56,217 bases of DNA from a candidate division Kazan bacterium RIFCSPHIGHO2_01_FULL_44_14 (GCA_001771185.1 METB01000001.1:252631-308847), one strand, 5' to 3'. Shown: positions 13,201-55,272, counted from the stretch's first letter. Notes: generated from the letters alone by a model not told the origin. Translations and numbers: made by a program.

Positions 13201-15230
13201 CCGCTTCAACTAAGACAGTTGATAAACCCGAAGCAGTACCGGGGACCTTGCTCGAATATAACATTACCATCGTCCATCAGGGCAATACTGTAGTAGACGC
13301 TTTGACAATCGACAACATCCCGACTAACACTACTTATGTCAACGGCTCTTTGACTGGAGATACTGGTTGGCAGACCTTGCAATATAATCCGGTTAATAAT
13401 CAAATCCAGGCCCAGGCCCAAATGCTGTCGAATTTCCCGTCTGGTCGTCCTTGGGAAATGGGTGTCCCAGAAGATGACGAGGGGTGGATTCCTACCACTC
13501 TGCAATTTAGTTTTTGGGTCAGTATTAATAATGGCACCGAAGGTGAAATCAGTAATACCGCCACCGTGTCAGATCCGGATGTGCCGGGGAGTTCTTTTAC
13601 TACCGATCCACCGGCAGTCACTTTGGTCCCTGGCGATAGTACCGAGGAAAAATTTTCTCCGCAGATCGTCAACCAATCTCCTGACAATGGCAGTTTTAGC
13701 GCGCCATTAAAAGGCACCATTAACGCTCAATTCAGCAAATCGATTAAGACCGATACATTAACTTATAGTGTGAATCTTGACGGCTATCCAGTTGATACTA
13801 CTGGTTGGCAAGACAGTTGGAGCCAGGAAGATAAACTATGGACACTCACTCCAGCAGAAAGTTTAGAAGTTGGTGCCCCTTATGAAGTTGAAATTAGTTA
13901 TGCCGAGGATACCGATGGCAATGTGCTGGTTGATGGACCATTACCCAACCCCTGGAGTTTTACGACGGTTGACCCAGTAGTAACTATCACTTCACCTAGC
14001 GAACTTTTGGTAGAACTAGTTGCTGAACAAATCAGCCCAGTTTTTACTGTGACTTTAAAAGACGCCCTGTCGGGTCAGACCTATACTGCCGAAGAAAATA
14101 CTACGATTGGACTAGGGGCTTGGCTAGGCGGAACTCCGCGCACCGCTGGTGTATTCTTGCTCCAAGATGGGAGTAACTGGCGGTATGTGACATCGATTAC
14201 GCTTACAACTGGTCAGTCACAAGCCCAGTTTTATTATCGCGACAGTAATATTTCCGATCCTGACTACATTACCATCACCGCTTATGAAAATCCGTCACAG
14301 GGTTGGGGTGACGCTGAAAAGAACGCGATCGTCCGAGGTGACGCACCTCCGGCTGATCATTTAATCGTCAACATCGATACCACCCTATTCACCACTAGTC
14401 AATTTAGCCCACCAATGGCAGTCCAGGCCCAAGACCAAACCGGGAAATTCTTGCGATTGCCGGAGATCTTATATTTCTACACTTCTTCCGACACGGGTCG
14501 ATTCTATGATGCGAATCACAATGTCCTGCCCGAATGGCTAACCATCCAAGGATTTAATCCCACTACCAACCTACAGTACTCCCAGCCAGGGGCAACTGGC
14601 AGTGCAACTTTCTATTATTGGGATATCACTCCAGGCGCTTACTTGGTCACCATTGCCGACCAGGCCCCGCTGACTCCGGATACCGGCTTCCGCAATGTCA
14701 GCGCGGTGTTCAATGTCGCAAACCTATTAGAAGAGGAAGAACTGCTCGAAGAATTAGAAGAAGTCGAAGACGAAACTGGCCGAGTTTTAGCCGAAGTGAC
14801 AGTTGAACCGACCGAGACCACTTTACTTCCTGGTGAGAAACAAACCTTTACCGCCAAGGCCTACGACGAAGATGGCAAAGAAATAGAAAATGTAATCTTT
14901 AGATGGTATGTGTTGGCCGGGGGCGGTACAATATTAAAGACCGGTAGCAAAGATGGTTCTCATGGTTCCGTTTTCACTGCTGGTCAAAAGCCCGGCATCT
15001 ACTATGACACTATTCTGGTCGCCACCCTTTACAACGGCAAGATTAATTACGCCACAGCTGGTGTAACCGTAACTGACATCGTTGAATACGGTGGCCCAGC
15101 CCGACTCCCCACTACTGGTATCTCTGGTCTGCAATTGATTCTATTGGCCCTGACTTTGTTAGCCGCAGTGGCTCTGGCCTGGGTTGAACATTATGATAAG
15201 ACCCACTTCAGAGAAGAAAGTAATGAGTAA
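10233..15230 (+). CDS. Giant secreted surface protein (BNR-like repeats, Ser/Thr-rich Ig domain, SbsA-type Ig, DUF11-like, Big_2-like) with C-terminal LPxTG-like sorting signal
   Basis: 1665 aa; signal/TM segment; YSTNNGTNW, SFSNDNGDSW; VTSPNGAETWVVGSTHDITWTS; IIVEFSEPMN; LPTTG + hydrophobic stretch + charged tail. Start is TTG 10233 or ATG 10257. Confidence 0.85.
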   Translation: MNKTKINPMPKTVLTIKSRRLFAFITAFTLVFQSVILGGIFGGFPAYASTATYNFTTPAEYTVTDTFAIHGGTAHFKIDWADVASSIPSVATITDLISPASAGLVWSATGDVDGAYKSINYGGNWNNISINADFIPDDFEVTLGDAGANAVNLFVGGSDTVAGAYAYSTNNGTNWTYNDTALVGAQNIVSVAHKSSATSYTWVFHRDGAISRTEDIDVITIWAFVATPFADARQLLWDETNGLLIASGGDLVDGKVSFSNDNGDSWTSATLPGSPPVTIDKLGYSNGYLYVGGSGYVAVGDVSAGLNNAGSWTDVSANINSGNFTAVTEFLNANEVMLVSVDATTGIDNGQVYSTLNDGTNWLTHGVATAATMPGPLTRLYSNGQFLWGVDDDVGSPSTYVGDFDTDSASVVTTVGISVATLSAIDITYNSASEEDNVGVALGFGVDPAGTWYYHDGGAWTSVVGGDYTNANIEAQLDTNLGTFDDEVAITGDIYLKIYSKGTVEGSGAYIHDLFLIDNIDVTYTAGTLAVTSPNGAETWVVGSTHDITWTSTGFGAGNIIDIDYYSPNNGGGWNSIIANTANDGSYTWTLPNDQTNQALVRVSSGSVTDSSDAVFTIYIPIRSPDENDPASQVDALPQYKTSSSFNVSATASDNVGVQTVSLYYRSDQSPTIQLWDTDNSAPFVFNFTSPHGNGLYQFYSGAVDFSGNDNWPEKLIAGPIVEASTTVDTFGPYITTQAPYPNQTEVAITQDIIVEFSEPMNTGTFGYQLYEQNNPTKPVTIISTTWSNSDTKLTVKHANFSYKTWYTFHAVTATDKAGNILLEGTPGGGWGMGIEVYYPEGTWDFETAPKRDPDLTSSTIEVSDGTHAGKYLPSETAHYTITLRNTSDLPANNVQASLTVSEGIKIVSGSITKTGGTIQIHYAGLLITGFTWSGTVIKGTNVIIRFNATVNTPANILEIEQGIAIDDNVNEMFQPAPAVIHIAKNPDFTASTKTVDKPEAVPGTLLEYNITIVHQGNTVVDALTIDNIPTNTTYVNGSLTGDTGWQTLQYNPVNNQIQAQAQMLSNFPSGRPWEMGVPEDDEGWIPTTLQFSFWVSINNGTEGEISNTATVSDPDVPGSSFTTDPPAVTLVPGDSTEEKFSPQIVNQSPDNGSFSAPLKGTINAQFSKSIKTDTLTYSVNLDGYPVDTTGWQDSWSQEDKLWTLTPAESLEVGAPYEVEISYAEDTDGNVLVDGPLPNPWSFTTVDPVVTITSPSELLVELVAEQISPVFTVTLKDALSGQTYTAEENTTIGLGAWLGGTPRTAGVFLLQDGSNWRYVTSITLTTGQSQAQFYYRDSNISDPDYITITAYENPSQGWGDAEKNAIVRGDAPPADHLIVNIDTTLFTTSQFSPPMAVQAQDQTGKFLRLPEILYFYTSSDTGRFYDANHNVLPEWLTIQGFNPTTNLQYSQPGATGSATFYYWDITPGAYLVTIADQAPLTPDTGFRNVSAVFNVANLLEEEELLEELEEVEDETGRVLAEVTVEPTETTLLPGEKQTFTAKAYDEDGKEIENVIFRWYVLAGGGTILKTGSKDGSHGSVFTAGQKPGIYYDTILVATLYNGKINYATAGVTVTDIVEYGGPARLPTTGISGLQLILLALTLLAAVALAWVEHYDKTHFREESNE

Positions 15231-15443
15231 TGAGTCGCGAGTAATAAAAGATGAATATTGAGCCAAATTTTTATCCGTCATACTAGGGAGTTCAGCCCCG
15301 AGGGGCCCCCGTTGGGGCAGAATAACTCCAGTATCGTAAAGGGATTATTTTTTATAAGATTCTGGATGCTTCTGCCGTACGGCAGAATTACCAGAATGAC
15401 GAAATTTTCACAACTCATTACTCACAACTCGTAACTACTAACT
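15220..15443 (+). repeat. Composite repeat: heptad 5' arm, nested GTCAT REPs, heptad 3' arm abutting the next ATG
   Basis: GTAATGA GTAATGA GTCGCGA GTAAT (15220-15245) ... CAACTCATTACTCACAACTCGTAACTACTAACT-ATG(15444). Confidence 0.8.
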
Positions 15444-15953
15444 ATGAAACACATCCTCCATCATTTCCGCCGCAACCGCACCTATAGTTCTCATGAACGA
15501 TGGGGTGTGTTCGCGGTTTTGGGAGCGCTGACAATTTTGGTTTCCGCCAGTAGTTTCATCTTGTTTGGCGAACCAGTTGCTTCAGCATCCTCACTGGCAG
15601 TGTTTGAAATTAATCCAATTAATCAAACCTTGTCGGCCGATGGGTTGGCTCATGGCCAGACCACTATTACTGTGATTGACAAAAAGACCAGCCAAGCGGT
15701 AGTTGGGGTTTGGGTTGGTTTACAAGTGACCAATCCAACCTTGCGAAGTATGGAAAGTACTTATCTGGACTGGTACAGCCCCGAGCCAGGACGAGCATTC
15801 TACCAGACCGACGAACGAGGCCAAGTATCGTTCCTGATGATATCTAGTGTTCCTGGAGAAATTGAATATGCTATTTTTGCAGCTAACCCAGAACTAAAAA
15901 ACGACAACAAATACCAAGACCTCGAACAAAGATTCAAGGTTGTATTTGAATAA
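15444..15953 (+). CDS. Membrane-anchored Ig-like (Big_1/invasin-like) protein
   Basis: TM helix, then LSADGLAHGQTTITVID...YQTDERGQVSFLMISSVPGE. Confidence 0.7.
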   Translation: MKHILHHFRRNRTYSSHERWGVFAVLGALTILVSASSFILFGEPVASASSLAVFEINPINQTLSADGLAHGQTTITVIDKKTSQAVVGVWVGLQVTNPTLRSMESTYLDWYSPEPGRAFYQTDERGQVSFLMISSVPGEIEYAIFAANPELKNDNKYQDLEQRFKVVFE

Positions 15954-15954
15954 T

Positions 15955-16144
15955 CTAGTATCGAGTTGCGAGTTTTTCTTTTGTGTCATTCCGGATTTAG
16001 TCCGGAATCTAGACAATAAAATGAATATTTTTTTATGGATGGATCCTGAAACCCCTCGGTAAACTCGGGACATCGCCCCTCGGTAAGCTCGGGACATCGC
16101 AAGTTCAGGATGACAGAGGAGAATTATCACTTGCGACTCATCGT
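15955..16144. repeat. Composite repeat region (heptad arms plus GTCAT REPs with an internal tandem duplication)
   Basis: gtcattccggatttagtccggaatctag; ggatcctgaa...cccctcggtaa(a/g)ctcgggacatcg x2...ttcaggatgac; agtatcgagttgcgagt. Confidence 0.8.
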
Positions 16145-16552
16145 TCATCGCTGCCTCGCATCCAATACTTGATTAACCAGCTGGTCGGCTGGTTTATTTA
16201 ATTCCCGACGGACATGTTGGAAATTGACTTTGGTCAGTTTACCGATTAATTTCTGGACTTCGGCAAACAATGGTTGTAAGTGAGCATCCCGCACTCGATA
16301 CTCGCCACTAAGCTGCTTAACAATTAACTCACTATCTAATTTCACTACCAATTCGCTGGGTTTTAATTTGATAGCAACTTTTAACCCATCAATCAGGGCC
16401 AAGTACTCGGCTTGGTTGTTGGTAGCTTCACCTAAATAACGACTAGTCGTTTTAACCACTTTGCCTTTGGCATCAGTCGCAACCACGCCGGTAGCAGCTG
16501 GGCCAGGATTACCTCTGGCTCCCCCATCAGTGTTGAGATAAAGTTTTGTCAT
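16145..16552 (-). CDS. rnhA: Ribonuclease HI (archaeal/actinobacterial-like short type)
   Basis: DGGARGNPGPAA, TNNQAEY, LDSELIVKQLSGEYRV, HVRRELNKPADQLVN. Confidence 0.93.
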   Translation of the reverse strand: MTKLYLNTDGGARGNPGPAATGVVATDAKGKVVKTTSRYLGEATNNQAEYLALIDGLKVAIKLKPSELVVKLDSELIVKQLSGEYRVRDAHLQPLFAEVQKLIGKLTKVNFQHVRRELNKPADQLVNQVLDARQR

Positions 16553-16625: not shown

Positions 16626-16700
16626 GCCGGAGTAACTCAGTGGTAGAGTAGCTGTTTCGTAAACAGCAAGTCGTGGGTTCAAATCCCACCTCCGGCTCCA
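16626..16700 (+). tRNA. tRNA-Thr(CGT)
   Basis: Cloverleaf GCCGGAG...GCTGT TTCGTAA ACAGC...GTGGG TTCAAAT CCCAC CTCCGGC TCCA. Confidence 0.96.
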
Positions 16701-16755
16701 TCATTGAGGTGGAGTACAGTAATATTGTGATTGGATATATTTTGGTCGTTATGGC

Positions 16756-16830
16756 CGGGGTGTGGCGCATCGGTAGCGCGCGCCGTTCGGGTCGGCGAGG
16801 CAGCAGGTTCAATTCCTGTCACCCCGACCA
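16756..16830 (+). tRNA. tRNA-Pro(CGG)
   Basis: CGGGGTG...CGCCG TTCGGGT CGGCG...GCAGG TTCAATT CCTGT CACCCCG ACCA. Confidence 0.95.
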
Positions 16831-18151: not shown

Positions 18152-18182
18152 ATTTGGAATTTGTCATTTGTAATTTGTAATT
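18152..18182 (+). repeat. AT-rich heptad repeat immediately upstream of rpmB
   Basis: ATTTGGA ATTTGTC ATTTGTA ATTTGTA ATT. Confidence 0.7.
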
Positions 18183-18191
18183 TTTCTAAAG

Positions 18192-18389: not shown

Positions 18390-18431
18390 ATTCTACCCCC
18401 ACTGACCACTAGCTACTAAATGTGCTAGATA

Positions 18432-19085
18432 CTAACTCGCTGGAGTTCCCAGCGCGGTTGGTTCCAAAATATATACCACCGGTCCTTCCTCTGGAAGGGT
18501 GGTTTTATTGATGGTCAGATTAGTCGCTCGATGGATGGTGGCACCTAGACGATGAAGAAATTGTTCGGCACCGACAACATCGATTTTGAGTCCGGTCACG
18601 GCGAAGTGCATTGGAATAACTAATTTTGGTTCTAATTGACGGACCAATTCAATGGCGGTCTCAATTGGCAAAGTATATTTCCCTCCAACTGGGACCATCA
18701 AAACATCAATGTCACCTAGTCCATCAATTAATTCGCTGTCGGGGATATGTCCCAAATCTCCACAATGTAAAATCCTTAAACCGTCAATTACGAATAGGAA
18801 CATCGTATTCCTCCCCCGCTCGGCTCCACCGGCCTCATCATGAAAAGTTCGGATCCCGTGAATCCGAGTGCCTCTGAATTCAAACTCACCGGGTGTGTCA
18901 AAAACTATTTTGGCATTTACTCCGGCGATATAATTGTGGTCGAAATGGTCATGGCTAATCGTCACCACATCAGCCATTAGTGATGGAAGCGCAAAACCAA
19001 TATCGGGGCTAAATGGATCGGTTACTACCACAACGTCACGGCCCTTCATTTGAAAACAGGAATGACCTATCCATGTGATATCCAT
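18432..19085 (-). CDS. MBL-fold metallo-hydrolase (Lactamase_B_3-like)
   Basis: MDITWIGHSCF, DPF, SHDHFDH, HCGDLG, PMH; GGAGG RBS before ATG 19085. Confidence 0.9.
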   Translation of the reverse strand: MDITWIGHSCFQMKGRDVVVVTDPFSPDIGFALPSLMADVVTISHDHFDHNYIAGVNAKIVFDTPGEFEFRGTRIHGIRTFHDEAGGAERGRNTMFLFVIDGLRILHCGDLGHIPDSELIDGLGDIDVLMVPVGGKYTLPIETAIELVRQLEPKLVIPMHFAVTGLKIDVVGAEQFLHRLGATIHRATNLTINKTTLPEEGPVVYILEPTALGTPAS

Positions 19086-19256: not shown

Positions 19257-19330
19257 GTGGGATTAGTACAATGGTAGTATGCAACCTTCCCAAGGTTGAG
19301 ACGCGAGTTCGATTCTCGTATCCCACTCCA
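19257..19330 (+). tRNA. tRNA-Gly(CCC)
   Basis: GTGGGAT...CAACC TTCCCAA GGTTG...GCGAG TTCGATT CTCGT ATCCCAC TCCA. Confidence 0.95.
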
Positions 19331-20168: not shown

Positions 20169-20368
20169 TTTTCTGGCGGGAGCGACGGGACTGTATCCCC
20201 AATAGGATTGGGCCCCGCCGTCGGACTGCATTAATGGGACTGTAGCACTGTATATTTTGGCAGTCCTCCTAGCAAACCCTTGCTTCGCACGGGTTCTCGC
20301 CCACGTCGCTCTAAACAAAAACATCCCTTATAGGATGTTTCCGTTTTTCTGGCGGGAGCGACGGGACT
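20169..20368 (-). mobile_element. ~150-bp element bounded by a 24-bp duplication of the tRNA-Asp 3' end
   Basis: ttttctggcgggagcgacgggact at 20169-20192 and 20345-20368. Confidence 0.6.
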
Positions 20369-20426
20369 CGAACCCGCGACCTCCTCCGTGACAGGGAGGC
20401 GCTCTAACCAACTGAGCTACGCCCCC
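20350..20426 (-). tRNA. tRNA-Asp(GTC)
   Basis: Reverse complement GGGGGCGTAGCTCAGTTGGTTAGAGCGCCTCCCTGTCACGGAGGAGGTCGCGGGTTCGAGTCCCGTCGCTCCCGCCA. Confidence 0.96.
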
Positions 20427-21698: not shown

Positions 21699-21773
21699 GC
21701 CCTCGTAGCTCAACGGATAGAGTAGCCCCGTCCTAAGGGGTTGATGGAGGTCCGATTCCTCCCGAGGGCGCCA
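21699..21773 (+). tRNA. tRNA-Arg(CCT), with non-canonical G32 and a TCCGATT T-loop
   Basis: GCCCTCG...GCCCC GTCCTAA GGGGT...GGAGG TCCGATT CCTCC CGAGGGC GCCA. Confidence 0.88.
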
Positions 21774-21786
21774 GAAAAATTGTCAT

Positions 21787-21861
21787 CGGGGTGTGGCCTA
21801 GTGGTAAGGCGCAAGGCTGGGGGTCTTGAGACCGCAGGTTCGAATCCTGTCACCCCGACCA
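21787..21861 (+). tRNA. tRNA-Pro(GGG)
   Basis: CGGGGTG...CAAGG CTGGGGG TCTTG...GCAGG TTCGAAT CCTGT CACCCCG ACCA. Confidence 0.95.
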
Positions 21862-27158: not shown

Positions 27159-27339
27159 ATCTTTAGTATCTAGCATTTAGTATTTAGTATCTAGAGGGAC
27201 AGGGCTGATTTGAGAATAGAGTATTTTTCAGGACATTGTCTCGTTCAGACAAGCAAAATGGTGGCTGAAAATAATCCGCTCCCAGATTTACAAAATCACC
27301 CATATCGGCTATACTCGGCGAGAGGATAAAGGGATAATT

Positions 27340-42900: not shown

Positions 42901-44584
42901 CGAGCTTGAGCTTGGTGATTTTAACACCTTCAGTTGAAGCCGAAGAGAACTTAAACTTCGCCACTTCAATTTGCTCGTCACCAATGATGTATGCCTGAGC
43001 CGTAAGAGTAGTCGCATCTTCGGCGACAGTAATGGTACCCTGAATAATCGTAAAAGTACCAGCGGCAGACAAAGTCGAGAAAGCAGTACCAGTGGTAGTT
43101 GAGGTGATGGTCACGACTCCGTTTGAATTTTGACCATAGGCCACCACACTAGTGGTTTCTTCAACTTGCCAGATGATTGTGCGCTGTGAAGTGATACCAG
43201 ATGCGACATCGGCAGCGACATAGACAACCTTGTTCTGACCAGCAGCCACGCTAAATAGTGGGCTGCCAGTGAAGGTCACTTTACCACCGCTTAGGGAAGC
43301 AACTGTCGAACCGATTTGAACACCGTTAACCTTTAACTTCATGTTCTTAACATCAGAATCAACTGACGTACCAACTTCGGTCAAAGTAAGAGAGTTAACA
43401 TCGAATCCTTCAGTGGCACTAGTTGCAAACTTGAAGGAACCCAAGTCCTGATCGGTGGTCCCAGAGACAACGTTGGCAGAAGCTGGGCTGGTAGGCGCAG
43501 TTACGGCCAAGTATCCCACAGATACTCCACCAACAGTAACATTATTTCCTGTTGCCGGGAAAGTTCCAGCCACTGTTCCGCCACCCGAGAGGACAACGTC
43601 AGAAGCTGAATCGATTCCCATGGTAACAATCTTTCCAACATCGGCAGTACTTGGGATAGTAATTTTTACAGTTAAGATCTTGGTAGTTCCCGCAGGAATT
43701 AGCCAAGATAAACCTGTAAATGTAGCTTTATGAGTGGTGGTGTTCAAACCTTGGGTTGAACCAAGTTTCGTATCACCGTCATAAATTTTAATGTCTGATG
43801 CATCGTCGTCAGCCGATAAACCGTCGCGACGAATAGCAATACTAGAAACTAATGCATTGTCACTAGCACTGGCTGCAAAGTTAATCTTTGTGACAACAAC
43901 ATCAGTAGCCAAAACGGCTACATTTAAAGCAGCTGGTGTTGTACCAGCAATACCGACATTCAGATTGCCGCCACCAGTCACGGTGCCGCCAATCAAGAAT
44001 CGCCAGAAGATGTCGCCAGAAGCGATGGCTTTGCCACCGGCAGTTACCTGCTGGGCCCAGCCGTCGAATTCACGGACAACTTCGGTGTAAAGATCGTAGG
44101 TGCCATTGGTGGCAGTGCTCTTAATCTTTACTGTCCAAGTCAAGGTCAAATCTTGACCTGGGTTGACTGCTGCACCGTCATAGTAGGTAAACCGATTACC
44201 ATTGATGGTGAAGCTTGATGCATCAAGCCAAGCCGGAACATTGTCCCGGGGATGCGAGGTACCGACACCCACCGCGTGAGCGTTGGGATAGGAAGGACCC
44301 TCGCTAAGCAGAGCACTCTTACCATACATGGTAAGGGCTTGTGAACTGGTAGACCGGTTACGAATGGTCAAGGACATACTCACGGTGTCGCCAGGATTGG
44401 TGGCAATTTCATGAGCTTTGCCATCGGCCGAAATCGTACCGCTCTGCGCAATCCACTGGTACTTGAAAGTACCGAGATTCTCAAAAGCCAGCGCTTGAGG
44501 CGCGGCGAAAGCCACAGCCATTGATGTTGCCATCAACCAGGCGAGGGCCTTTGAGGTGTTGCGTAAAACTGTATTATTCATCAA
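39959..44584 (-). CDS. S-layer-like / major surface protein (1541 aa) with an N-terminal NBR1-type Ig-like domain and tandem beta-rich repeats
   Basis: Signal peptide; Thr/Ser/Ala/Gly-rich; repeated module (TP.A.NV..G..D.....F.F.A...E...V.SL.....G....D..NVKLY.G.TQ.G). Confidence 0.8.
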   Translation of the reverse strand: MMNNTVLRNTSKALAWLMATSMAVAFAAPQALAFENLGTFKYQWIAQSGTISADGKAHEIATNPGDTVSMSLTIRNRSTSSQALTMYGKSALLSEGPSYPNAHAVGVGTSHPRDNVPAWLDASSFTINGNRFTYYDGAAVNPGQDLTLTWTVKIKSTATNGTYDLYTEVVREFDGWAQQVTAGGKAIASGDIFWRFLIGGTVTGGGNLNVGIAGTTPAALNVAVLATDVVVTKINFAASASDNALVSSIAIRRDGLSADDDASDIKIYDGDTKLGSTQGLNTTTHKATFTGLSWLIPAGTTKILTVKITIPSTADVGKIVTMGIDSASDVVLSGGGTVAGTFPATGNNVTVGGVSVGYLAVTAPTSPASANVVSGTTDQDLGSFKFATSATEGFDVNSLTLTEVGTSVDSDVKNMKLKVNGVQIGSTVASLSGGKVTFTGSPLFSVAAGQNKVVYVAADVASGITSQRTIIWQVEETTSVVAYGQNSNGVVTITSTTTGTAFSTLSAAGTFTIIQGTITVAEDATTLTAQAYIIGDEQIEVAKFKFSSASTEGVKITKLKLEENGDAVSTDYQNVRIYVGDSATPISTAGSVSGTTTTFEEGNGLFTIPASGNTIITIKLDISSSAAAIDTLQFGVGNANDDYSYVTGYGSTSGEKIPQDTSHITLTTCADTDAAIHTIAANGTLVISVGPNTPAAANVAKGVTNYEFTQFRAQATSEAMRVTAVASRFFVGAGTGTASATGDVNNVKLLVWNGTAWTQLGSTVSNPTTGVASFSFDYTVPKNTTSTFKVVGDIPTGTAAASLHANIIDYGIADDITSTGVSSAADITETGSAIGLLHTVVAPIITVNASTVPGDSTLIVNGDNELLGKFFLSANDVEDIKVSTLKIYTDIDGTMDGASAADLLTNTVYLRFNDGGTWRATNPDNWATGSPDFIIFAGSDFKEPNEWIIPAGGSLVVEIRGDVIAAGTAYVGMTTTAANTVGAGLSSGTSATIYDYQASPNQAYNQIWKSGAMTLSAGGTITITAATNKPAVQQVTSTWNVSAPVTPTFFKIKLEGTSEDIIVDAIRAKLFDGNQGAAATDDNFAGTVYVWEGGTIVNNVLTGGVQVGSGSLIPVTSDDAAADIVFTTPITIPKDGVKYLTLTAEMNSDTNGADSADTPYIGLDYNVQTGLWDSNYADDYNVRATGVSSNAKLYSEGTIAAVLKGNATFVVKAKLGMEMNSGSPSGLATRHPGHPIFIVNMTNTSGGTDARFRAASANAVSAITSWATTGDAYLAAVETNTTYDIDGTSLKFTASGTSAVDDGFYYDDALANDLSAYERVSFWLYSSAAVAAGDLEFVISSETADMISTGSPEFDEDIPAIAIGSWQRMDFALSGLTSDSRYYGVVVKANPDDSAGIYIDNIQFYDDMLNIDLSSDGGLFNTTGASTNPAVTFKDSSGTTVATGYVSGTGTAGLSTSTAKITMIPNTEWAIPAGGDVLTVLVDTTVLMNAASEDLTMTVDLGSSNSDGDITAGDVMWNDNEYASSIDWVDSPTPLSRGLNF

Positions 44585-45681: not shown

Positions 45682-45890
45682 AGTTGTGAGTTACGAGTAT
45701 CGAGTCGCGAGTTATTAGTATTGAGTCGCGAGTATCGAGTTGTGAGGAGAGATGAGTCGCGAGTGTGAGAGAAGAAAAGAGTTATTAGTTATAAAAAATT
45801 CCGCAAATACTTTTAAGAAAATAGAGATGTTCCCCATTTTCCCAAAAGTTCTTGCGGAACCCTTAGAAAGCGAGTGACGAGTTACGAGTC
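45682..45890 (-). repeat. Heptad repeat 3' arms (ACTCGxx) between the four-helix-bundle gene and the DUF5667 start
   Basis: Plus-strand runs of gagt-nnn at 45682-45768 and 45870-45890. Confidence 0.85.
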
Positions 45891-45907
45891 GCTCGTTGCG
45901 AGAGTCG

Positions 45908-46294
45908 TTAATCGTTCACTGTAATCTGGTTTGAAATGTTGTTTTTTTGACTTTTAATGAGACCAGCCAACATCCGATTAATTTCTTCCGATTGCCGTAT
46001 AATATCTGTTACCTGTTCTGATGTGAGGTACTGGAGGTCGGATGCAATATGTGTTTGGGTCTCTAGCTCGGCTAAAGATCCCCTTGCAATTCTAATGAAT
46101 CGAATAAAATCTTTTGCCGATGAGCGACCACACCCTTCAGCGATATTGGAAGCTATTGAAACAGCACTGCGTCGAATTTGCGACTGAAGACCAAACCGTT
46201 CATCGATAGGAAAGTGCTGGGTATGCCTGTAAATCGACGTCGCCAGAATACGAGCTTTTTGCCAAACAGACAGTTGTGCGTATCCCCCATTCAT
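45908..46294 (-). CDS. Four-helix-bundle protein (23S rRNA IVP-like, TIGR02436-type)
   Basis: YAQLSVWQKA...FPIDERFGLQSQIRRSAVSIASNIAEG...FIRIARGSLAELETQ; start is ATG 46294 or GTG 46330 inside the repeat arm. Confidence 0.92.
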   Translation of the reverse strand: MNGGYAQLSVWQKARILATSIYRHTQHFPIDERFGLQSQIRRSAVSIASNIAEGCGRSSAKDFIRFIRIARGSLAELETQTHIASDLQYLTSEQVTDIIRQSEEINRMLAGLIKSQKNNISNQITVND

Positions 46295-46316
46295 GTAATT
46301 GCTCGTTACTCGCGAC

Positions 46317-46877
46317 TCACGACTCGTCACTTAACATGTCTCTTAACTTTGCCAGAGCCCGTACCGTGATAGCCCGCACATTTGCTTCTTTTTTCTTGAT
46401 GGCTTGCGCCACCCGAGCAATTGGCAGTTCTTCAACAAACCGTAATCGCAAGACCTTTTGATATTCTTCCGGTAACCGCTGTAAGGCGTTTTCCAGAACC
46501 GAGGCCTCGTGGTAGGGCTCATCCCCTTCAAGATCAGCAATTTCTGGCAGATTCTCGAAAGAAATTTCTCCCCGACGATTAATTCGGTAGTAATCGATGA
46601 CCGAATTGCGCGCGACAGTGTAAAGCCAAGTTGAAAACTTAGCATCCGCTTGCGGTTTGTATTGATGGATTTTCTGCCAGACCTTGAGGAAGACCTCCGA
46701 GGTAAGATCCTCGGCTACCGGGACACTTCTGACTTTGAGATGGACGAATCGGTAAACCTTGCCGGCCCAAATCTCGTAGAGTTCGCCGAAGGCCTGCTCA
46801 TCGCCCCCTTGGGAGCGTTGAATCAGGTCGGTTTCTCGCTGTTTGGCATAATCCGCTTTAAGCTGCAAAATGGCCAT
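46317..46877 (-). CDS. ECF RNA polymerase sigma factor, copy A
   Basis: AFGELYE, AEDLTSEVFLKVW, FSTWLYTVARNSVIDYYR, LQRLPEEYQKVLRLRF. Confidence 0.95.
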   Translation of the reverse strand: MAILQLKADYAKQRETDLIQRSQGGDEQAFGELYEIWAGKVYRFVHLKVRSVPVAEDLTSEVFLKVWQKIHQYKPQADAKFSTWLYTVARNSVIDYYRINRRGEISFENLPEIADLEGDEPYHEASVLENALQRLPEEYQKVLRLRFVEELPIARVAQAIKKKEANVRAITVRALAKLRDMLSDES

Positions 46878-47057: not shown

Positions 47058-47540
47058 TAGTGAGTTACGAGTATCGAGTCGCGAGTGGAGGAATGTCAGA
47101 GAGAGTCACGAGTATCGGGAAACTGCTCGCAATGACAAGATAAGGGGGAAACAAGGGAGTTGGTGAATAGTGAGTTACGAGTATCGAGTCGCGAGTGGAA
47201 GAATGTCGGAGAGAGTTACGAGTAGGTTTGCTTTCATCCTAGTAAGTCCATCGTCATTCCGGACTTACCTGCCCGTTCCGAAGCCACAGGCATAGGCGGG
47301 ACCCGGAATCCAGAAAGAAAAATAAAAGATTTTCTGTTTAGGTCTGGATTCCCGTCTTCCTGCCCGAATCGCTACGCCCGCCAGAAACGTTGTATCTACT
47401 ACGGGCTGGCGAATCGTTGCGGGCGGGCGCGGGAATGACAGGGGGGCGGGAATGACAGGAAAAGCGACCTAGACGGAAACAACCGACAAGAGTGCTTGTC
47501 GGTTGTTCAATACTCATTTCTCACTACTCAATACTTCCTC
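47058..47540. repeat. Composite repeat region (heptad arms, 57-bp direct repeat, nested GTCAT and GCCCG REPs)
   Basis: Direct repeat 47058-47114 / 47168-47224 (3 mismatches); gtcattccggac...ccggaatcc; ggattcccg...gggaatgac. Confidence 0.85.
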
Positions 47541-48509
47541 TTACATCAGATGCGGTGGCCAGTTTGGTTCGACTTCTGGCACGACTGGTTTGGACGAGTC
47601 CTTGGAAATCACCTGGTCGAAATAGTCCTGAATCGCCTGTCCCACCAAAGCAATTTGCTGTTTGATTTCGGCTACCTGATTAAGATTCTGTTGAACATCT
47701 TCGTCGGTTCCCAGCGAATCGTCCGGGACAGGCAACTTGGCATCTTCAGTGGCATCTATTTCATCTTCGGTCTCACCCAACTTTTTCAGAGTTTCCCGAC
47801 GAAGTTCATTCATTTCTTGAACTGATTCTTTCCGCCATTCCCGTAACCGAGCCCGAAGCGGAATTTGGTTCATGACACTCCCCTCAATCTCATTCATCCG
47901 CTCTTCGCGCTTATCCATCACCTCACCCAGATGTTCAATGATATTTTGAAAAACCTCTTTTTGAGCGTCGGTCGTAGCACCAGCCAATTTCTCTTCAAAT
48001 TTGGTCTGGACGGTGTTAACCCGTTCGATGCTTTGGGCTACTCGCTCAACTGCATTTTGTTTGCGTTGTTCGAATCTGGCCTTCATTTCATCTGACCATT
48101 GGCTTGGGTCAATCGTCTGCATGGCTTTGAGTTCAGCCAATCGTTCCTCACTAAACTTAGCCAATAAACCGGCCTTGGATTCTGGGGTCCGAGTAATTTT
48201 TTCCTGAATTCGCTCCACCCATTGATCAATGGGGTAAAGCGTGTCACCCGGCTTGGCTGTATTAGCCCAAGCGGCAGTTCCACCACCTAGGGCAATGATG
48301 GTGGCAATAATTAATGGGATAAGTGGCATAGCAAATCTCCTTTGGTTAAATGTATTACTTGCCTGACGAGTACCAGTCCGCTCTGGAAGCATATTTATTA
48401 CACTCATCAGGTTATTTTTGATTTCCGACTTATCTGAAGAGGATAACTGAACCCGACTCCCTGCTTGGCGGATTAGTTCTTCTAGCTGTTTGTCGGTGTG
48501 GTTAGACAT
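47541..48509 (-). CDS. DUF5667-domain membrane protein (putative anti-sigma), copy B
   Basis: TM, then AKPGDTLYPIDQWVERIQ...AKFSEERLAEL. Confidence 0.8.
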   Translation of the reverse strand: MSNHTDKQLEELIRQAGSRVQLSSSDKSEIKNNLMSVINMLPERTGTRQASNTFNQRRFAMPLIPLIIATIIALGGGTAAWANTAKPGDTLYPIDQWVERIQEKITRTPESKAGLLAKFSEERLAELKAMQTIDPSQWSDEMKARFEQRKQNAVERVAQSIERVNTVQTKFEEKLAGATTDAQKEVFQNIIEHLGEVMDKREERMNEIEGSVMNQIPLRARLREWRKESVQEMNELRRETLKKLGETEDEIDATEDAKLPVPDDSLGTDEDVQQNLNQVAEIKQQIALVGQAIQDYFDQVISKDSSKPVVPEVEPNWPPHLM

Positions 48510-48842
48510 AGGGGCCAGTTAATAGTTAAAAGTGAATGGTGAATAGTTATAGAAAGGATTGGAGATGGGGGTCAGTTAAAGGTGAATGGTCCTCCTCCGT
48601 TCTGCTGTCCGCCAGCTGGCGGAAGCAGAACTACGGAAGGATCTGCGATGAATAGTTGGGTAAAAAGAGTTCGTCATGCTGAATTTAGTTCAGCATCCCT
48701 GCCTACCGGCAGGCAGGTAGATCCTGAAACAAGTTCAGGATGACGAGCGGGGAGAGATCCTTCGGCTCCGCTCAGGATGACAAGGGATGGGCTTGGGATG
48801 ACAGATATAGGTGGGCAAAAACGATAGACACATCTGTCATTT
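48510..48842. repeat. Composite repeat region between sigma B and DUF5667 B
   Basis: gttaata/gtgaatg heptads; CCTCCT-hairpin-CTACGGAAGG element (48591-48652); cctgcctaccggcaggcagg (48698-48717) nested in a GTCAT REP. Confidence 0.85.
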
Positions 48843-49379
48843 TTAATTTTTAATTTGTAATTGCTGTTTTAGCTTATCTAATCCCCTTTTAACGATAACT
48901 CGAAGGTGATTTTCGGTTTTGCCGGTAATTTGAGCGATTTCAGAATAATCTAGTTCTTCGACAAATTTCAGCTTGAGAACGGTCTGATAAAGTTCGGGGA
49001 GTTGATCGATATTATCGATTACTCGAGTCACCTCATCATTCGTTTCCACCTCTGCCTCTACATCCGTGCCACCAGAGCGATTTATTACAGCGTCTAAGGA
49101 GACGGTCGGGCGATGGCGCCGGTAGTGGTCAATCAGGTTATATCTGGCAATCGCAAATATCCAGGTCTTGAATGGTCGATTGGGGTCATACCGATGCAAA
49201 CTTTGCCAGGCCTCCAACCAGACCTGACTTAAAATATCCTTAGCCGAGTCGTTATCGCGTAACCGAAAGGCCAAAAACCGATAGATGCTATCTGATAATT
49301 CATCAAATAATTGACCGAATGCACCGCTATCGCCTTCTTTGGCCGCCAAAGCTAATTGATTAATTTCTTGATTTGTCAT
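48843..49379 (-). CDS. ECF RNA polymerase sigma factor, copy B
   Basis: AFGQLFD, FKTWIFAIARYNLIDHYR, LPELYQTVLKLKF; the likely start is ATG 49379 (the track extension reads through repeats). Confidence 0.93.
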   Translation of the reverse strand: MTNQEINQLALAAKEGDSGAFGQLFDELSDSIYRFLAFRLRDNDSAKDILSQVWLEAWQSLHRYDPNRPFKTWIFAIARYNLIDHYRRHRPTVSLDAVINRSGGTDVEAEVETNDEVTRVIDNIDQLPELYQTVLKLKFVEELDYSEIAQITGKTENHLRVIVKRGLDKLKQQLQIKN

Positions 49380-49399: not shown

Positions 49400-49637
49400 T
49401 GATGAGTAACGAGTATTGAGTTGCGAGTAGCGAGTGTATTGAGTCGAAGGACCATCTGTCATCCTGGTAATTCTGCCGTACGGCAGAAGCATCCAGAATC
49501 TTATATACGATTCTGGGCACCTGCCCGAAGATGCTACATCATTGCAGGCGGGAGCCAGAATGACGACGGATATGGTGGGTTAAGCCAGAACACGACTCCG
49601 TTTTAATTGGTTAGATTGGTGAGATTGAATAGATTGG
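49400..49637. repeat. Composite repeat region between mnmA and sigma B
   Basis: Heptad arm at 49400-49443; GTCAT REP at ~49460-49502, a near-identical inverted copy of ~15357-15399; gattggtt repeats. Confidence 0.8.
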
Positions 49638-51011
49638 TTAGATTATCTTTTTTATTATTCCCCCTCCGAGACAGACAGAACCATCATACAGTACCAGGGA
49701 TTGGCCTGGAGTCAAGGCACGAACTGGAGCATCGAAGATGAAGGAGTAGCGAGTCGCGAGTAACGAGTTGTGAGTGACGAGTTGCGAGTGATGAGTTGCG
49801 AGTGATGAGTTGCGAGAGGGAGATTGTTTCGGTGTGTTTTTTTGTCTGGATCCCGGCTCGGAGGCCGGAATGACGATAGTTTCACCGTTCGCAACTCGCG
49901 ACTCGTTACTCGCGACTTCTTCTATTACCAGCTGACCCGAATAAACTTCGGGGCCATAACGGGGCTTGGCGGTAAGTAAGTAACGAGTTACGAGTGACGA
50001 GTGACGAGTTGAATGCTTTTCACCCGCAACTCGCGACTCGCGACTCGCGACCTTCTCTATTAGGTGTAGGTTCTTCAAAACCACCCCTTGACCGTAAGTA
50101 GCAGAATCCGGACCGACCACGACCAGATTTTTCTTAATATCAGTCGATATCACATAAAGCGGGTCGGTTTGCCCTGATAAACCAGCCACCCGCCTCTGGC
50201 CGATAGTATAAAACCAGGCCCCTTCATGTTCACCAACCACTTTACCCTCTAGGTTGACAATTTTGCCTTTTTTCTGTGTAATAACGGTTTTTAAGAACTT
50301 TTTAACATCAATTGGTCCGATAAAACAAATTCCCTGACTGTCTTTTTTGGTGGCAGTCGGTAATTTAAACTGTTTAGCCAACGCCCTAACCCGCTTTTTT
50401 GGGTATTGGCCAATCGGGAATAGGGTTTTAGACAACTGGGCTTGGGTCAAATTGTAAAGAAAATAGGTCTGGTCTTTGATGGGGTCTGCTCCTTTTAGGA
50501 GCAAATGACGAGTGACGAGTGACGAGTGACGAGTAAGGGAAGAGTTAGTTTTTCCACTCGCGACTCGCGACTCATGACTCGCAACTCGTTGCGCATAATG
50601 TCCGGTGGCAATAAAGTCGGCTCCTAGAGCCATGGCTCGTTTTAAAAACAGACCAAATTTAATTTCTTTGTTGCACATCACATCTGGATTGGGCGTTCGA
50701 CCGGCTTTGTATTCAGCAAAAAAGTAATCCAGTACCTGCTTTTTGTATTCCTTTTCGAAATTAAAGGTGTAATAAGGGATATCAAGTTGCTGACAAACCG
50801 CTCGCATATCGGCAAAGTCCTGTTCGACAGAGCAATATTCTGTCCTAGTGTAGATAAGATCGCTCCAGCCCGCAGAGCTACGCTCAGCGTTGCTGGCGGG
50901 CCAGTTCTTCATAAAGACCCCAACCACTTTAAAACCCTGCTGTTTCAGCAGAGCGGCAGCCACAGAGGAGTCGACTCCCCCACTCATAGCGACAAAGACA
51001 GTTGGCGTCAT
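49638..51011 (-). CDS. mnmA: tRNA 2-thiouridylase MnmA carrying four in-frame repeat-derived insertions
   Basis: SGGVDS, PNPDVMCN, ATGHYA, KDQTYFL, KKDSQGICF, FYTIGQR and TPGQ are all intact. Confidence 0.96.
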   Translation of the reverse strand: MTPTVFVAMSGGVDSSVAAALLKQQGFKVVGVFMKNWPASNAERSSAGWSDLIYTRTEYCSVEQDFADMRAVCQQLDIPYYTFNFEKEYKKQVLDYFFAEYKAGRTPNPDVMCNKEIKFGLFLKRAMALGADFIATGHYAQRVASHESRVASGKTNSSLTRHSSLVTRHLLLKGADPIKDQTYFLYNLTQAQLSKTLFPIGQYPKKRVRALAKQFKLPTATKKDSQGICFIGPIDVKKFLKTVITQKKGKIVNLEGKVVGEHEGAWFYTIGQRRVAGLSGQTDPLYVISTDIKKNLVVVGPDSATYGQGVVLKNLHLIEKVASRESRVAGEKHSTRHSSLVTRYLLTAKPRYGPEVYSGQLVIEEVASNESRVANGETIVIPASEPGSRQKNTPKQSPSRNSSLATHHSQLVTHNSLLATRYSFIFDAPVRALTPGQSLVLYDGSVCLGGGIIKKII

Positions 51012-51260
51012 AACGAATTAAAAATTAAAAATTGATAAATTAAAAATGGAGAATGGGACTGTAAAATAGAGAAGTTAATAGTTAAAAGTGATAAGTCCTC
51101 CTCCGTCCCGGTTCGCCGGGACTACGGAAGGATCCTCGATGAAAAGTTATAGTTGTCATTCCGAGTGACACCGAGTGTAGCCGAGGGGAATCGAGGAATC
51201 TAGCTCGTCAGCTAACGGACGGCTATGCCTAGATCCTTCGACTCCGCTCAGGATGACAGG
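51012..51260. repeat. Composite repeat region upstream of mnmA
   Basis: aaattaa heptads; 83-bp segment 51121-51203 matches 53447-53529 (3 mismatches). Confidence 0.8.
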
Positions 51261-52779: not shown

Positions 52780-52810
52780 AAAAAAATACCCTGCCGAGAA
52801 GCGGCAGGGT
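52780..52810 (-). terminator. Intrinsic terminator (minus strand)
   Basis: Minus strand ACCCTGCCG-CTTCT-CGGCAGGGT-ATTTTTT. Confidence 0.65.
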
Positions 52811-53389: not shown

Positions 53390-53945
53390 AAGTTAATAGT
53401 TAAAAGTCCTCCTTCGTTCTGCTGTCCGCCAGCTGGCGGAAGCAGAACTACGGAAGGATCTGCGATGAAAAGTTATAGTTGTCATTCCGAGTGACCCCGA
53501 GTGTAGCCGAGGGGAATCGAGGAATCTAGTCCCGGCTAGCCGGGACGGCTCCGCCTAGATCCTTCGACTCGCTTCGCTCACTCAGGATGACAAAAAGAAG
53601 GGCTGGATCAGGATGACAAAAAGGAGGACTTACTTAAGATGACAGAATAAAAGAATACCAATGGAGATTAAAGTCACAACCAACAATTTATCTGCCACCC
53701 AAACGCTGGGGGAGACCTCCTTTGTTCTGCTGTCCGCCAGCTGGCGGAAGCAGAATTACGAAAGGATCTGCGATGAAAAGTTGGGGGTTGGGAATTGGGG
53801 ATGGTCAGTGAACAGTTAAAGGTTAAAAGCCACTTAAAAGAGTTCCGTCATGCTGAATTTACGATGTCCCGAGTTTACCGAGGGGATTCAGCATCTATCT
53901 TACTTATCGAGCCATGGATTCTGAAACGAGTTCAGGATGACCAGA
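53390..53945. repeat. Large REP cluster
   Basis: Two CCTCCT-hairpin-CTACGG elements (53408-53469, 53716-53777) and several GTCAT/ATGAC palindromes. Confidence 0.85.
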
Positions 53946-54050
53946 CAAGGAGGGGACCTGAACAATCATGAATCCTGAAATCCTTTGGTAAACTCGAGAC
54001 ATCATTTCCAGGTAGGAAATACTGAGAACCAGAATTGTTATACTGTCAGT

Positions 54051-54551
54051 ATGGATACCGAACAAAGCCAATACCTTCACGAAGTAGTAATCACTGCCAT
54101 TGTGGCAAAAGATGGCAAGTATCTAATTACCAGAAGAGCCCCCACTAAACGAAGATTTCCTGGTATGTGGACTGTACCGGGTGGCCGGTTAGAAACCGGG
54201 GATTATTTGGTTATGCCAAAAGAGACCGAGTTTTATTGGTATAATGTGCTCGAACGAGCTTTAAAACGCGAGGTTAAAGAAGAAGTCGGGATTGATATAG
54301 ATCACATCGAGTATGTAACGAGTTTAGCAACAGTCCATGCTGATGGTTCGCCATCTCTGGTTATCTCCTGTGTTGCTGATTACGCCAGTGGTGAAGTCAG
54401 GTTACAGGAAGGGGAGACCGACCAATTTACTTGGGTATCACTCGAGGAAGCCAAAAACTACCAACTGATTGATGGTATTTACGATGAACTAGCCATGGCT
54501 GAACATCACCGCCAAGGAATTCGAACAGAGTGGCAGAGAAGTGCGGTTTAA
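54051..54551 (+). CDS. NUDIX hydrolase
   Basis: PGGRLE...LERALKREVKEEVGI (Nudix box with an insertion); likely start ATG 54051. Confidence 0.9.
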   Translation: MDTEQSQYLHEVVITAIVAKDGKYLITRRAPTKRRFPGMWTVPGGRLETGDYLVMPKETEFYWYNVLERALKREVKEEVGIDIDHIEYVTSLATVHADGSPSLVISCVADYASGEVRLQEGETDQFTWVSLEEAKNYQLIDGIYDELAMAEHHRQGIRTEWQRSAV

Positions 54552-55093
54552 CTACTGGCTAATTCTGGAAACCAGAGTGCAATTTCTCGTTCGGCCTCAA
54601 CGACTGATTCGGAGGCATGAATGAGATTTTCCAATGCCCGACCTTCACCGTTAGCTTTAGCGTAAGAGTCGATGCCATGATCGCCCCGGATAGTCCCTCT
54701 TTCGGCGTATTCAGGACTAGTAGCCCCGACTATGTCTCTAATTTTCTGGATGGTTCCCTCCGGTCCTTCGATAATCATCGCGATTACTGGACCAGACACC
54801 AGGAAAATCGCCATCCATTGTCTAATCTGTTTGCCAACCACTACTGGGTCATTAGATCCAAAGACCTTATTTATGTCTAGTCCTTGCTTTTGATAACTGG
54901 CAACTGTCTTACTACCAACGCTGGCATACCACTCATCAGAGTCGGCATAATGCTTTAACGCCAGATCTCTATCCACTTGCATTTCTTTTTTGGCGGTAAT
55001 ATTCAGCCCAGCATCAATAAAATATTGAATGACCCGATTGGCCACTCCACGCTTAAGCCCGTCCGGTTTAATCATTACAAAGGATCTTTCCAT
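54548..55093 (-). CDS. ndk: Nucleoside-diphosphate kinase (long form)
   Basis: ERSFVMIKPDG, GTIRGD, NLIHASES. Confidence 0.95.
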   Translation of the reverse strand: MERSFVMIKPDGLKRGVANRVIQYFIDAGLNITAKKEMQVDRDLALKHYADSDEWYASVGSKTVASYQKQGLDINKVFGSNDPVVVGKQIRQWMAIFLVSGPVIAMIIEGPEGTIQKIRDIVGATSPEYAERGTIRGDHGIDSYAKANGEGRALENLIHASESVVEAEREIALWFPELASS

Positions 55094-55115
55094 AGCATCT
55101 CCTTCTGTCGACAGT

Positions 55116-55272
55116 TATAAGTTATAAGCTAAAAGTGATAAGTTATGGTATCCCGGCAAGTAATTTTTAATGATGAATTTTGAATTTTGAGTGAATGACC
55201 TAATATCTTAATTTTGAAACATTCAGTCACTCAGATTTGATTCGAAATTCGAAATTAGAAATTAGAAATTGG
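55116..55272 (-). repeat. AT-rich heptad repeats between the M16 peptidase gene and ndk
   Basis: Minus strand AATTTCT AATTTCT AATTTCG AATTTCG; AAAATTC AAAATTC; CTTATAA CTTATAA. Confidence 0.75.

Follow-up and report, generated by a model that had tools for sequence, protein, structure and literature searches.

Mirror-symmetric polarity of period-7 tandem arrays at the gene boundaries of a 0.70-Mb bacterial genome

Introduction

In the present study, we analysed a 56,217-nt stretch of bacterial DNA (the window; GCA_001771185.1 METB01000001.1:252631-308847) and the tandem arrays of 7-nt units, or heptads, which it carries next to the stop and start codons of its genes. An earlier note on this DNA had proposed that purine-rich arms stand at stop codons and pyrimidine-rich arms at start codons, and had placed them beside the short tandemly repeated repetitive (STRR) sequences of cyanobacteria. 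STRR are dispersed intergenic tandem heptamers of several families, which sometimes occur as two complementary arms lengthening a helix. They were reportedly described by Mazel et al in 1990 in heterocystous cyanobacteria, Vioque is said to have found a copy inside RNase P RNA in 1997, and Elhai et al reportedly saw in 2008 small dispersed repeats nested within the heptamer arrays of Nostoc. Heptamer arrays have a 35-year record in cyanobacteria, to which Xanthomonas and Beggiatoaceae were added later, and we know of no accepted function or origin. The arrays studied here resemble STRR in their 7-nt tandem units and in being dispersed and mostly intergenic, and they resemble the nested repeats of Nostoc in that an insert of about 35 nt lies inside ACTTTTN arrays. 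They differ in that the host is not a cyanobacterium and, to our knowledge, a polarity rule at gene ends has not been described for STRR. The sequences which we take to be the STRR1-3 consensus (CCCCAGT, TTGGTCA and CAACAGT) are unmatched by the top units here, and only AACAGTT-type units come close.

MacGregor (2015) described TAACTGA heptamer direct repeats in marine Beggiatoaceae, some Cyanobacteria and Bacteroidetes, with 147 of 170 directed at a start and 1 nt before it as their most frequent end point, and proposed a role as a Shine-Dalgarno-independent leader or in protein binding (PMC4679880). The present arrays share with them the tandem heptamer with an ACT core (TAACTGA = ..ACTGATA..), the overwhelmingly intergenic and forward placement a few nucleotides before starts, the usual absence of a ribosome-binding site, the presence inside ribosomal-protein operons, stops in all frames one way and a mobility mechanism that is not known. 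In contrast, one unit is dominant there, whereas about 85 unit families occur here, in a different phylum; the dominant types are ACTTTTA/ACTTTTC/ACTATTC and ACTCGCG, with TAACTGA outside the top families. The mirrored purine arm at the stop side and the arm-loop-arm modules are not described for TAACTGA, and insertion between conserved stop and start codons is demonstrated here by a congener.

In Xanthomonas and Nostoc, Rehm et al (2015) found GGGAATC and GGGGAYT arrays to be 89-93% intergenic, at a mean of 28 nt from the end of the upstream open reading frame (ORF); the GGGAATC arrays of Xanthomonas form 70-75 pairs with an invariably convergent order (plus, then minus strand), the GGGGAYT arrays of Nostoc have an orientation bias (18% vs 34%), and the arrays are not conserved between related species (PMC4692102). 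Intergenic placement, closeness to the upstream ORF and lack of conservation between related species are shared by our arrays, as is the purine-first handedness of the Xanthomonas pairs. However, G-tracts able to form quadruplexes are present there, while the arrays here are A/T-rich with 6-18% G and few GGGATTT-type arms, and neither a G-free arm at the start side nor junction-exact insertion was reported there. Palindromes inside genes are known from Rickettsia, where the Rickettsia palindromic elements (RPE) are 100-150-bp palindromes of unique sequence that lie inside conserved genes and keep the frame. Similarly, hairpin repeats occur here in frame inside a conserved ORF (mnmA) and are absent from its orthologues; unlike RPE, they are heptad arrays, and RPE have no polarity rule at gene ends. 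The repetitive extragenic palindromic (REP) sequences, their hairpin-forming doublets (REPIN) and the REP-associated tyrosine transposase (RAYT) make up another system of short intergenic palindromic repeats with many copies (Bertels and Rainey 2011, PMC3116915). It differs from the present one in that no Y1/RAYT transposase was found in three genomes here and in that the arms here are built of periodic heptads instead of a fixed palindrome.

In the literature, we did not find a paper linking heptamer repeats to the candidate phyla radiation (CPR). The start-side half of the rule is already described for one unit (MacGregor 2015, PMC4679880). The CPR host, the mirror rule over many unit families, the exact junction insertions, the loops bearing cargo and the in-frame copies are new.

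Results

The genome of the window (G000) was compared with a congener (G002) and with a member of another genus (G008). By our own period scan (+1 per match, -1 per mismatch, minimum score 10), 170 period-7 arrays were detected in G000, while periods 5, 6 and 8-11 yielded 12-50 each, a strong enrichment of period 7. Although the coding fraction of the genome is 79%, 152 of the 170 arrays were intergenic. Tandem Repeats Finder (TRF) assigned period 7 to 185 of its 468 rows for the genome and to about half of the 45 tandem repeats in the window. The arrays have 79 different consensus units, the commonest of which are A/T-rich (AAATTAG, AAAATTC, AAAAGTG, AAAAATT and AAATTAC), and the GAGTnnn/nnnACTC class prevails in the right half of the window.

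On the coding strand of G000, arrays at most 60 nt from a stop were mostly purine-rich (26:10) and those at most 60 nt from a start mostly pyrimidine-rich (28:7; Mann-Whitney p=4e-6), and this result stayed stable when three thresholds for gene calling and three for arrays were tried (p=7e-5 to 7e-6). It was repeated in G002 (stops 9:4 purine-rich, starts 13:4 pyrimidine-rich, p=6.5e-4) and in G008 (stops 46:6 purine-rich, starts 44:9 pyrimidine-rich, p=6e-13), where the AGT/ACT class alone gave 30:7 vs 3:34 (Fisher p=1.4e-10). After pooling of the three genomes, arrays at most 10 nt from a codon were purine-rich at stops in 68:10 and pyrimidine-rich at starts in 69:15, and at 11-100 nt the polarity was gone. 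The position and polarity proposed in the earlier note were therefore confirmed. Its further statement that period and polarity are conserved, and not the sequence, also held when each heptad family was given one vote, with 38 purine-asymmetric families following the rule and 4 opposing it. In G000 alone, the effect came mostly from the NNNNAGT/ACTNNNN class (14:3 at stops, 3:25 at starts), and all other units gave 20:16 and 17:20. Arrays without a complementary partner also followed the rule (p=0.0015). Among the 13 arrays listed in the earlier note, 12 fit; the other (18152-18182), 111 nt upstream of a start, is rich in A on the coding (minus) strand.

A trivial cause would be a general purine or GC skew, or ORF calling itself, since a stop codon is rich in purines and the first one closes the ORF. 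In favour of this, G exceeds C over the whole contig, any array at the end of an ORF will look purine-rich on account of the TRR stops, and stop and array are in phase in 43 genes. However, flanks without arrays were mildly skewed the opposite way (purine fraction 0.52 before starts and 0.487 after stops), and general skew therefore does not explain the strong orientation bias. Genic arrays were purine-rich on the coding strand in 31:8, and no hidden pyrimidine-rich pool was present inside the 3' ends of ORFs. ORF ends that are defined by stops cannot produce a bias at starts, and stop codons alone do not account for the bias at stops, as 22:7 remained when both orientations close equal numbers of frames. 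Since both orientations occurred on the same strand within the same regions, set by the left or right place in the junction, replication-strand skew was excluded. With the robustness to thresholds and the recurrence in three genomes, these controls refute an artefact.

The rule on the coding strand is arithmetically equal to the statement that arrays are purine-rich when read 5' to 3' outward from any gene end, and likewise to the statement that, on either strand, a purine-rich array stands at the left and a pyrimidine-rich one at the right. The outward-purine bias in G000 was equally strong at stops and at starts, and the rule was present at convergent (9:2) and divergent (2:8) junctions. Being mirror-symmetric even there, it reflects the handedness of an inverted arrangement and not a dependence on the transcribed strand, so that the transcription-linked insertion suggested in the earlier note was not borne out. 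Arrays were present at both ends of 26 junctions vs about 5 expected under independence; 15 of these were purine-rich then pyrimidine-rich (R..Y) and 0 had the reverse order (Y..R), and AGT runs stood ahead of ACT runs in 14:3. The paired-arm architecture read from the window is thereby supported.

Gene junctions were compared with those of the congener, which shares 429 reciprocal best hits with G000 at a mean amino-acid identity of 74%; 303 adjacent gene pairs are conserved between the two. Arrays were present at 50 of these conserved junctions in G000 only, at 8 in G002 only and at 18 in both, and the G000-only junctions had a median length of 184 nt vs 36 nt in G002. In the side-by-side junctions, the C-termini, stops, starts and N-termini were conserved, and the spacers of G002 measured 2-5 nt or were ATGA overlaps, while 30-280 nt of array, loop and array stood at the same places in G000. 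For example, one junction reads taaACCatg in G002; its G000 counterpart begins at the stop side with tag AAGC AGTATCG AGTAACG AGAATTG AGTAGTG and ends at the start side with ACTCATA ACTCGCA ACTAATA ACTCATT ACTTATT atg. As judged from these alignments, the arrays are evidently lineage-specific, recent insertions between conserved stop and start codons. Several of these junctions were placed by Pfam inside the ribosomal-protein cluster, namely S19|L22, L22|S3, S8|L6, S13|S11, S11|S4 and L13|S9; if the cluster is co-transcribed as in other bacteria, these arrays would sit within polycistronic transcripts of essential genes. The idea that the empty site itself had seeded the unit was rejected by a comparison by eye, in which the G002 spacers were unlike the G000 units and unit families recurred across loci.

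The sense composition of the arrays was A43 C12 G18 T27 (%) after stops, with C at 11.9%, and A28 C23 G5.7 T43 (%) before starts. The depletion of G at the start side is greater than its mirror image, the depletion of C at the stop side, which indicates a true strand-specific component. In stop-side arrays, more frames were closed in sense than in antisense (45:10). Start-side arrays finish 0-10 nt upstream of starts, in place of the usual ribosome-binding region; NTG was rarer in sense than in antisense (58:21), 36 of the 99 were without any G and 62 were without NTG. When a purine-rich unit has only one T, this T opens a TRR triplet, and every such triplet other than TGG is a stop (TAA, TAG or TGA). 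As 7 is coprime to 3, one stop per unit rotates through all three frames within 21 nt. In the 43 genes mentioned above, the stop codon was in phase with further stops at +7/+14/+21, and other periods gave about 20.

G000 is a single contig of 699,981 bp with 45.6% GC, of which the window covers 252,631-308,847. Its completeness score is 99.7% at 0.70 Mb, and its relatives span 0.4-1.2 Mb. The nearest match of MnmA was a metagenome-assembled genome (MAG) named 'Patescibacteria group bacterium' with 50% identity, followed by Firmicutes with about 40%, and the window holds two ECF-sigma/DUF5667 gene pairs (see below). By these lines of evidence G000 is very likely a genome of the Patescibacteria (CPR), and the cyanobacterial setting implied by the earlier note was given up. 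Over the whole contig, the plus strand has 169,893 G vs 149,166 C despite balanced gene strands (301 plus, 288 minus). Both genomes used for comparison are complete; G002 has 603 kb, 51.8% GC and 49 arrays, and G008 has 715 kb and 191 arrays. The pattern AGTN4AGTN4AGTN4AGT was matched 71 times in G000, 136 in G008, 92 in G011, 36 in G033 and 43 in G058, and not at all in many other genomes. AGT-phased heptad runs are patchily abundant across Patescibacteria, with G041, G057 and G060 also among the array-rich genomes.

Discussion

We favour, with moderate confidence, the explanation that the arrays are palindromic heptad-arm modules, or arrays which expand likewise, that sit at stop/start junctions with a fixed handedness, are compatible with expression on both strands and are probably kept by selection at the boundaries. 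Such a module would consist of a 5' arm, then a loop or cargo, and then a 3' arm. The modules would have colonised the very short stop/start junctions of a Patescibacteria lineage and, in places, ORFs in frame. Because an inverted repeat is identical on both strands, its 5' arm faces the left gene end and its 3' arm the right one in any gene orientation, and the apparent strand rule may be the fixed handedness of the module viewed from the genes that flank it. The 5' arm would be built of A/G-rich NNNNAGT units tending to one stop per 7 nt, with all three frames closed, and the 3' arm of ACTNNNN units, U/C-rich with about 6% G and mostly without ATG, GTG or TTG. A ribosome entering from either side would be stopped at once, and the downstream gene would receive a leader of little structure, free of false starts and of Shine-Dalgarno-like runs.

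Genes between complementary arms bear on this explanation. Six such cargo genes were found, five of them encoding four-helix-bundle proteins and one a GIY-YIG protein, each copy with a different heptad family. The four-helix-bundle genes are the one in the window (see below) and those of G008 at C2:173500-173847, C2:165340-165687, C1:83899-84222 and C1:477042-477356. In 4 of these 5 the polarity was reversed, with the R arm before the start and the Y arm after the stop; the fifth, with AATATCC/GGATATT arms, was weakly the other way by purines. The reversal is expected if the polarity is a property of the module itself, as opposed to translation signals as such. One of the G008 copies sits at the junction orthologous to window 15231-15443.

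Several points weigh against the module explanation. A strongly complementary partner within 700 nt was present for only 22 of 169 G000 arrays, and the arms are non-complementary at many both-end junctions; the module origin of single arrays is therefore something that we infer. Complementary pairs more than 12 nt from gene ends had no R-then-Y bias (1:4; they are few, and some probably flank uncalled small genes), and some families have the other handedness by purines, such as (CTAAATC)n..(GATTTAG)n and the arms within the composite element described below. Purifying selection at gene boundaries probably maintains the handedness, a view taken from the pattern only. Genes were called by a heuristic of our own, in which long ORFs are scored by codon log-odds and selected greedily; several of the called starts and stops were confirmed through the alignment with the congener. 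Finally, no enzyme for array mobility was found among the candidates tested in the three genomes. The Y1 (RAYT/IS200-like) transposase, PF01797, had 0 matches in G000, G002 and G008 with positive controls, and was ruled out as the driver. Small GIY-YIG nuclease ORFs (13, 3 and 7 copies in G000, G002 and G008) are not associated with arrays, as only 1 of the 13 in G000 is flanked by heptad arms. The four-helix-bundle (Avd-like) gene, with one copy in G000 and none in G002 despite its 49 arrays, was likewise rejected as the driver and looks like cargo.

The results have several consequences. The mirror symmetry turns a strand rule into a handedness rule, and one stop per unit, closing all three frames, offers a rationale for the period of 7. 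Repeats of this kind are plentiful in the ultra-small genomes of the CPR, which have minimal intergenic space. A further question is how translation proceeds in Patescibacteria when a gene is preceded by a G-free repeat leader lacking a Shine-Dalgarno sequence. For annotation, the arrays set the ends of ORFs, hide small cargo genes and lengthen conserved proteins (MnmA by a third). A wider claim, which we regard as rather unlikely, is that Patescibacteria carry phylum-wide, hitherto undescribed expression-neutral heptad modules with a three-frame stop arm on both strands and a G-free, Shine-Dalgarno-independent leader, which split coupled genes (also in ribosomal-protein operons), carry Avd-like or GIY-YIG cargo and enter ORFs in frame. 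If it is true, many genes would be translated from G-free repeat leaders by non-canonical initiation.

The main rival, to which we give a possible but clearly lower standing, holds that the arrays are functional translation signals. The G-free ACTNNNN leader would be a Shine-Dalgarno-independent element (an unstructured standby site, or a binding site of the S1, cold-shock or CsrA-like kind), and the purine array at the stop side would be a three-frame fail-safe terminator or insulator. In its favour, the arrays replace the ribosome-binding region directly before starts with very little G and few NTG triplets, G depletion at the start side goes beyond the prediction of strand symmetry, single arrays obey the rule, and arrays lie inside essential ribosomal-protein operons. 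The TAACTGA repeats share this placement, orientation, missing ribosome-binding site and occurrence in ribosomal-protein operons (PMC4679880). Against it stand the high turnover (50 junctions with arrays in G000 only, 8 in G002 only, 18 in both), with G002 orthologues that work with 2-5 nt spacers, and the 85 different units, which leave no single binding motif. The cargo genes in the loops show the opposite polarity, and the same arrays occur in frame inside mnmA.

An intrinsic DNA mechanism without selection is less probable still, and we consider it distinctly unlikely. Here a fold-back, a staggered cut or a recombinase would always put the purine array 5' in the palindrome and would target stop/start junctions. 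The complete lack of Y..R among the 26 both-end junctions, the same handedness in the Xanthomonas pairs and a period that is constant over about 85 unit families agree with it. The arms of paralogous cargo genes are also mutually complementary and differ between copies, as if one arm had been copied from the other. However, the polarity is lost beyond about 10 nt from codons, the few pairs away from gene ends are unbiased, the start-side G depletion breaks the predicted strand symmetry, and a candidate enzyme was not found among the Y1 transposase, GIY-YIG and four-helix-bundle genes checked.

The RNA model of the earlier note appears very improbable to us. According to it, the arms pair in a polycistronic transcript and loop out the spacer, so that the stop comes near the next start and termination-reinitiation coupling, or an upstream Shine-Dalgarno sequence, is kept. 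The insertions do fall at junctions which in the congener are ATGA overlaps or spacers of 2-5 nt, as is typical of coupled genes, and a single outer helix closes the minimum-energy fold in 65% of both-end junctions, with medians of 5.5 and 12 nt unpaired. At 15216-15449, the arms pair in a sense fold with z -6.0. However, the antisense of this junction reaches z -6.9, nested GC hairpins supply the folding energy, and a stretch of about 20 nt ahead of the AUG is single-stranded; the proposal that the spacer at 15220-15443 folds out and brings the stop to the start is not supported. Nor is the same proposal for 45682-46331, where the looped-out spacer is a 550-nt segment holding a whole gene. 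Co-directional both-end junctions were the least structured class (-0.125 vs -0.247 kcal/mol/nt for array-free junctions). Their antisense RNA was more stable than the sense in 23 of 29 (23:6), while at array-free junctions the sense was favoured 307:190. The sense z scores of ribosomal-protein junctions with pure arms were -0.65, -0.37 and -0.05 against dinucleotide shuffles. Since the sense RNA is no better than shuffles and worse than the antisense, translational coupling through hairpins of the arms is not supported, and the arms are not supported as a selected mRNA hairpin. Furthermore, the rule persists at convergent and divergent junctions, where there is nothing to couple, and single and non-complementary arms obey it too. 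An artefact of composition or of ORF calling is left with almost no probability by the controls given above.

Features of the window

The purine-rich arm AGTAATG AGTAATG AGTCGCG AGTAATA lies at 15219-15245 on the plus strand, and the stop TAA (15228-15230) of a 1657-aa ORF is inside its second unit. The loop at 15246-15407 (+) contains nested GC-rich hairpin repeats that are also found elsewhere in the genome and in relatives; the matching junction of the congener is far shorter, with about 12 nt between the genes by BLAST and 65 vs 276 nt by gene calls. The pyrimidine-rich arm TCACA ACTCATT ACTCACA ACTCGTA ACTACTA ACT at 15408-15443 (+) then runs directly into the ATG at 15444. A convergent junction follows, with its two partner ends at 15954-15975 (+) and 16125-16147 (-). 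The first is the AGT-type arm AGTATCG AGTTGCG AGT, 3 nt past the stop TAA (15951-15953), and the second is the short purine-rich arm TGAGTCGCAAGTGATAA, which begins within the stop codon of the ORF at 16145-16552 (-). On the minus strand, TAG heptads (TAGTATC TAGCACA .. TAGTAGC TAGTGGT) at 18410-18434 begin at the stop of the ORF at 18432-19049 (-). The A-rich array of AAATTAC type at 18152-18183 (-) is 111 nt upstream of the start at 18040 and abuts no codon; the earlier note had taken it on the wrong strand. An ACT-type array, CTAGATACTAAATACTAAATGCTAGATACTA, at 27162-27194 (-) is placed at the start of a Wzy-like gene (24930-27176, minus strand) at a divergent junction.

The arrays described next, from the right half, are all given on the minus strand, and two gene pairs for an extracytoplasmic function (ECF) sigma factor and a DUF5667 protein are located there in the window. 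A long ACTC-type pyrimidine arm (45682-45756) abuts the ATG at 45681 of a DUF5667 gene at distance 0. Another ACTC-type arm (45871-45907) lies directly past the stop of the cargo gene, with a polarity reverse to the rule of the host genes. The cargo gene itself (45908-46294) encodes a four-helix-bundle protein (PF05635, 23S_rRNA_IVP / Avd-like) and is the sole copy in G000. The GAGT-type purine arm GTGACGAGTCGTGAGTCGCGAGTAACGAGC at 46299-46331 overlaps the stop TGA (46317-46319) of an ECF sigma gene. Two ACTC-type arrays (47062-47086 and 47163-47196) lie centrally in a 663-nt junction, well away from any codon. The second DUF5667 gene (47541-48509) has the purine arm AGTATTG AGTAGTG AGAAATG AGTATTG at 47507-47535, 5 nt past its stop, and the pyrimidine arm ACTATTC ACCATTC ACTTTTA ACTATTA ACT at 48517-48547, 7 nt ahead of its start at 48509. 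The A-rich arm AATTACA AATTAAA AATTAAA AATGACA (48831-48862) overlaps the stop of the ECF sigma gene at 48843-49379, and an ACTC-type arm (49404-49435) stands 24 nt ahead of the start of this gene at 49379.

Three GAGTnnn..nnnACTC hairpins (49744-49917, 49979-50051 and 50506-50588, minus strand) lie in frame inside mnmA (49638-51011), and all are R then Y. With one further insert near the N-terminus, they amount to about 107 extra residues, so that the protein has 457 aa vs about 350 aa in orthologues. Of the four in-frame inserts, at least 3 are heptad hairpins, their peptides are SRVAS../..SSLVTRH-like, and one carries a nested element. A T-rich arm of ATTTTTA type (51016-51056, minus strand) is placed 4 nt ahead of the mnmA start at 51011.

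The composite element at 55100-55290 (-), called compA, has the order (AATTTCT)n, a small hairpin, (AAAATTC)n, ACTTGCCGGGATACCATA and (ACTTATN)n. It is a dispersed element of about 170 nt with a small conserved hairpin and about 20 copies or fragments in the genome, of which 13 are sense and 3 antisense to flanking co-directional genes. Its three heptad arrays are the repeats seen at 55113-55270 by TRF and in the earlier note.

Other repeats are nested in or between the arms. The insert of about 35 nt (..catcgcagatccttccgtagctttaggcggaggagg..) is nested in ACTTTTN arrays at several loci, for example at 42973-43703, 110020-110525 and 619904-620297 of the genome, outside the window, and in the region 48510-48842 of the window. 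Hairpin repeats of the GTCATTC..GAATGAC type and GC-rich ones (e.g. gttctgc..gcagaac) fill the loops between arms, for example at 47425-47459 and 15340-15400 of the window. Other genera of the family contain them too, with matches in G008, G016 and G025.

Rfam gave no match on the arrays or on compA, and its only matches in the window were a tmRNA and six tRNAs. The tmRNA is located at 6924-7297 (-) and the tRNA regions at 16626-16827, 19257-19327, 20353-20426 and 21699-21858. Two GIY-YIG ORFs of the window, 4814-5143 (-) and 6543-6785 (-), stand on either side of the ORF at 5244-6476 (-), upstream of the tmRNA gene, and neither is flanked by arrays. The ORF of nucleoside diphosphate kinase (NDK) at 54548-55093 (-) matched the Pfam NDK profile in two stretches (residues 94-177 correspond to profile positions 60-132), which suggests a possible insertion or N-terminal extension.

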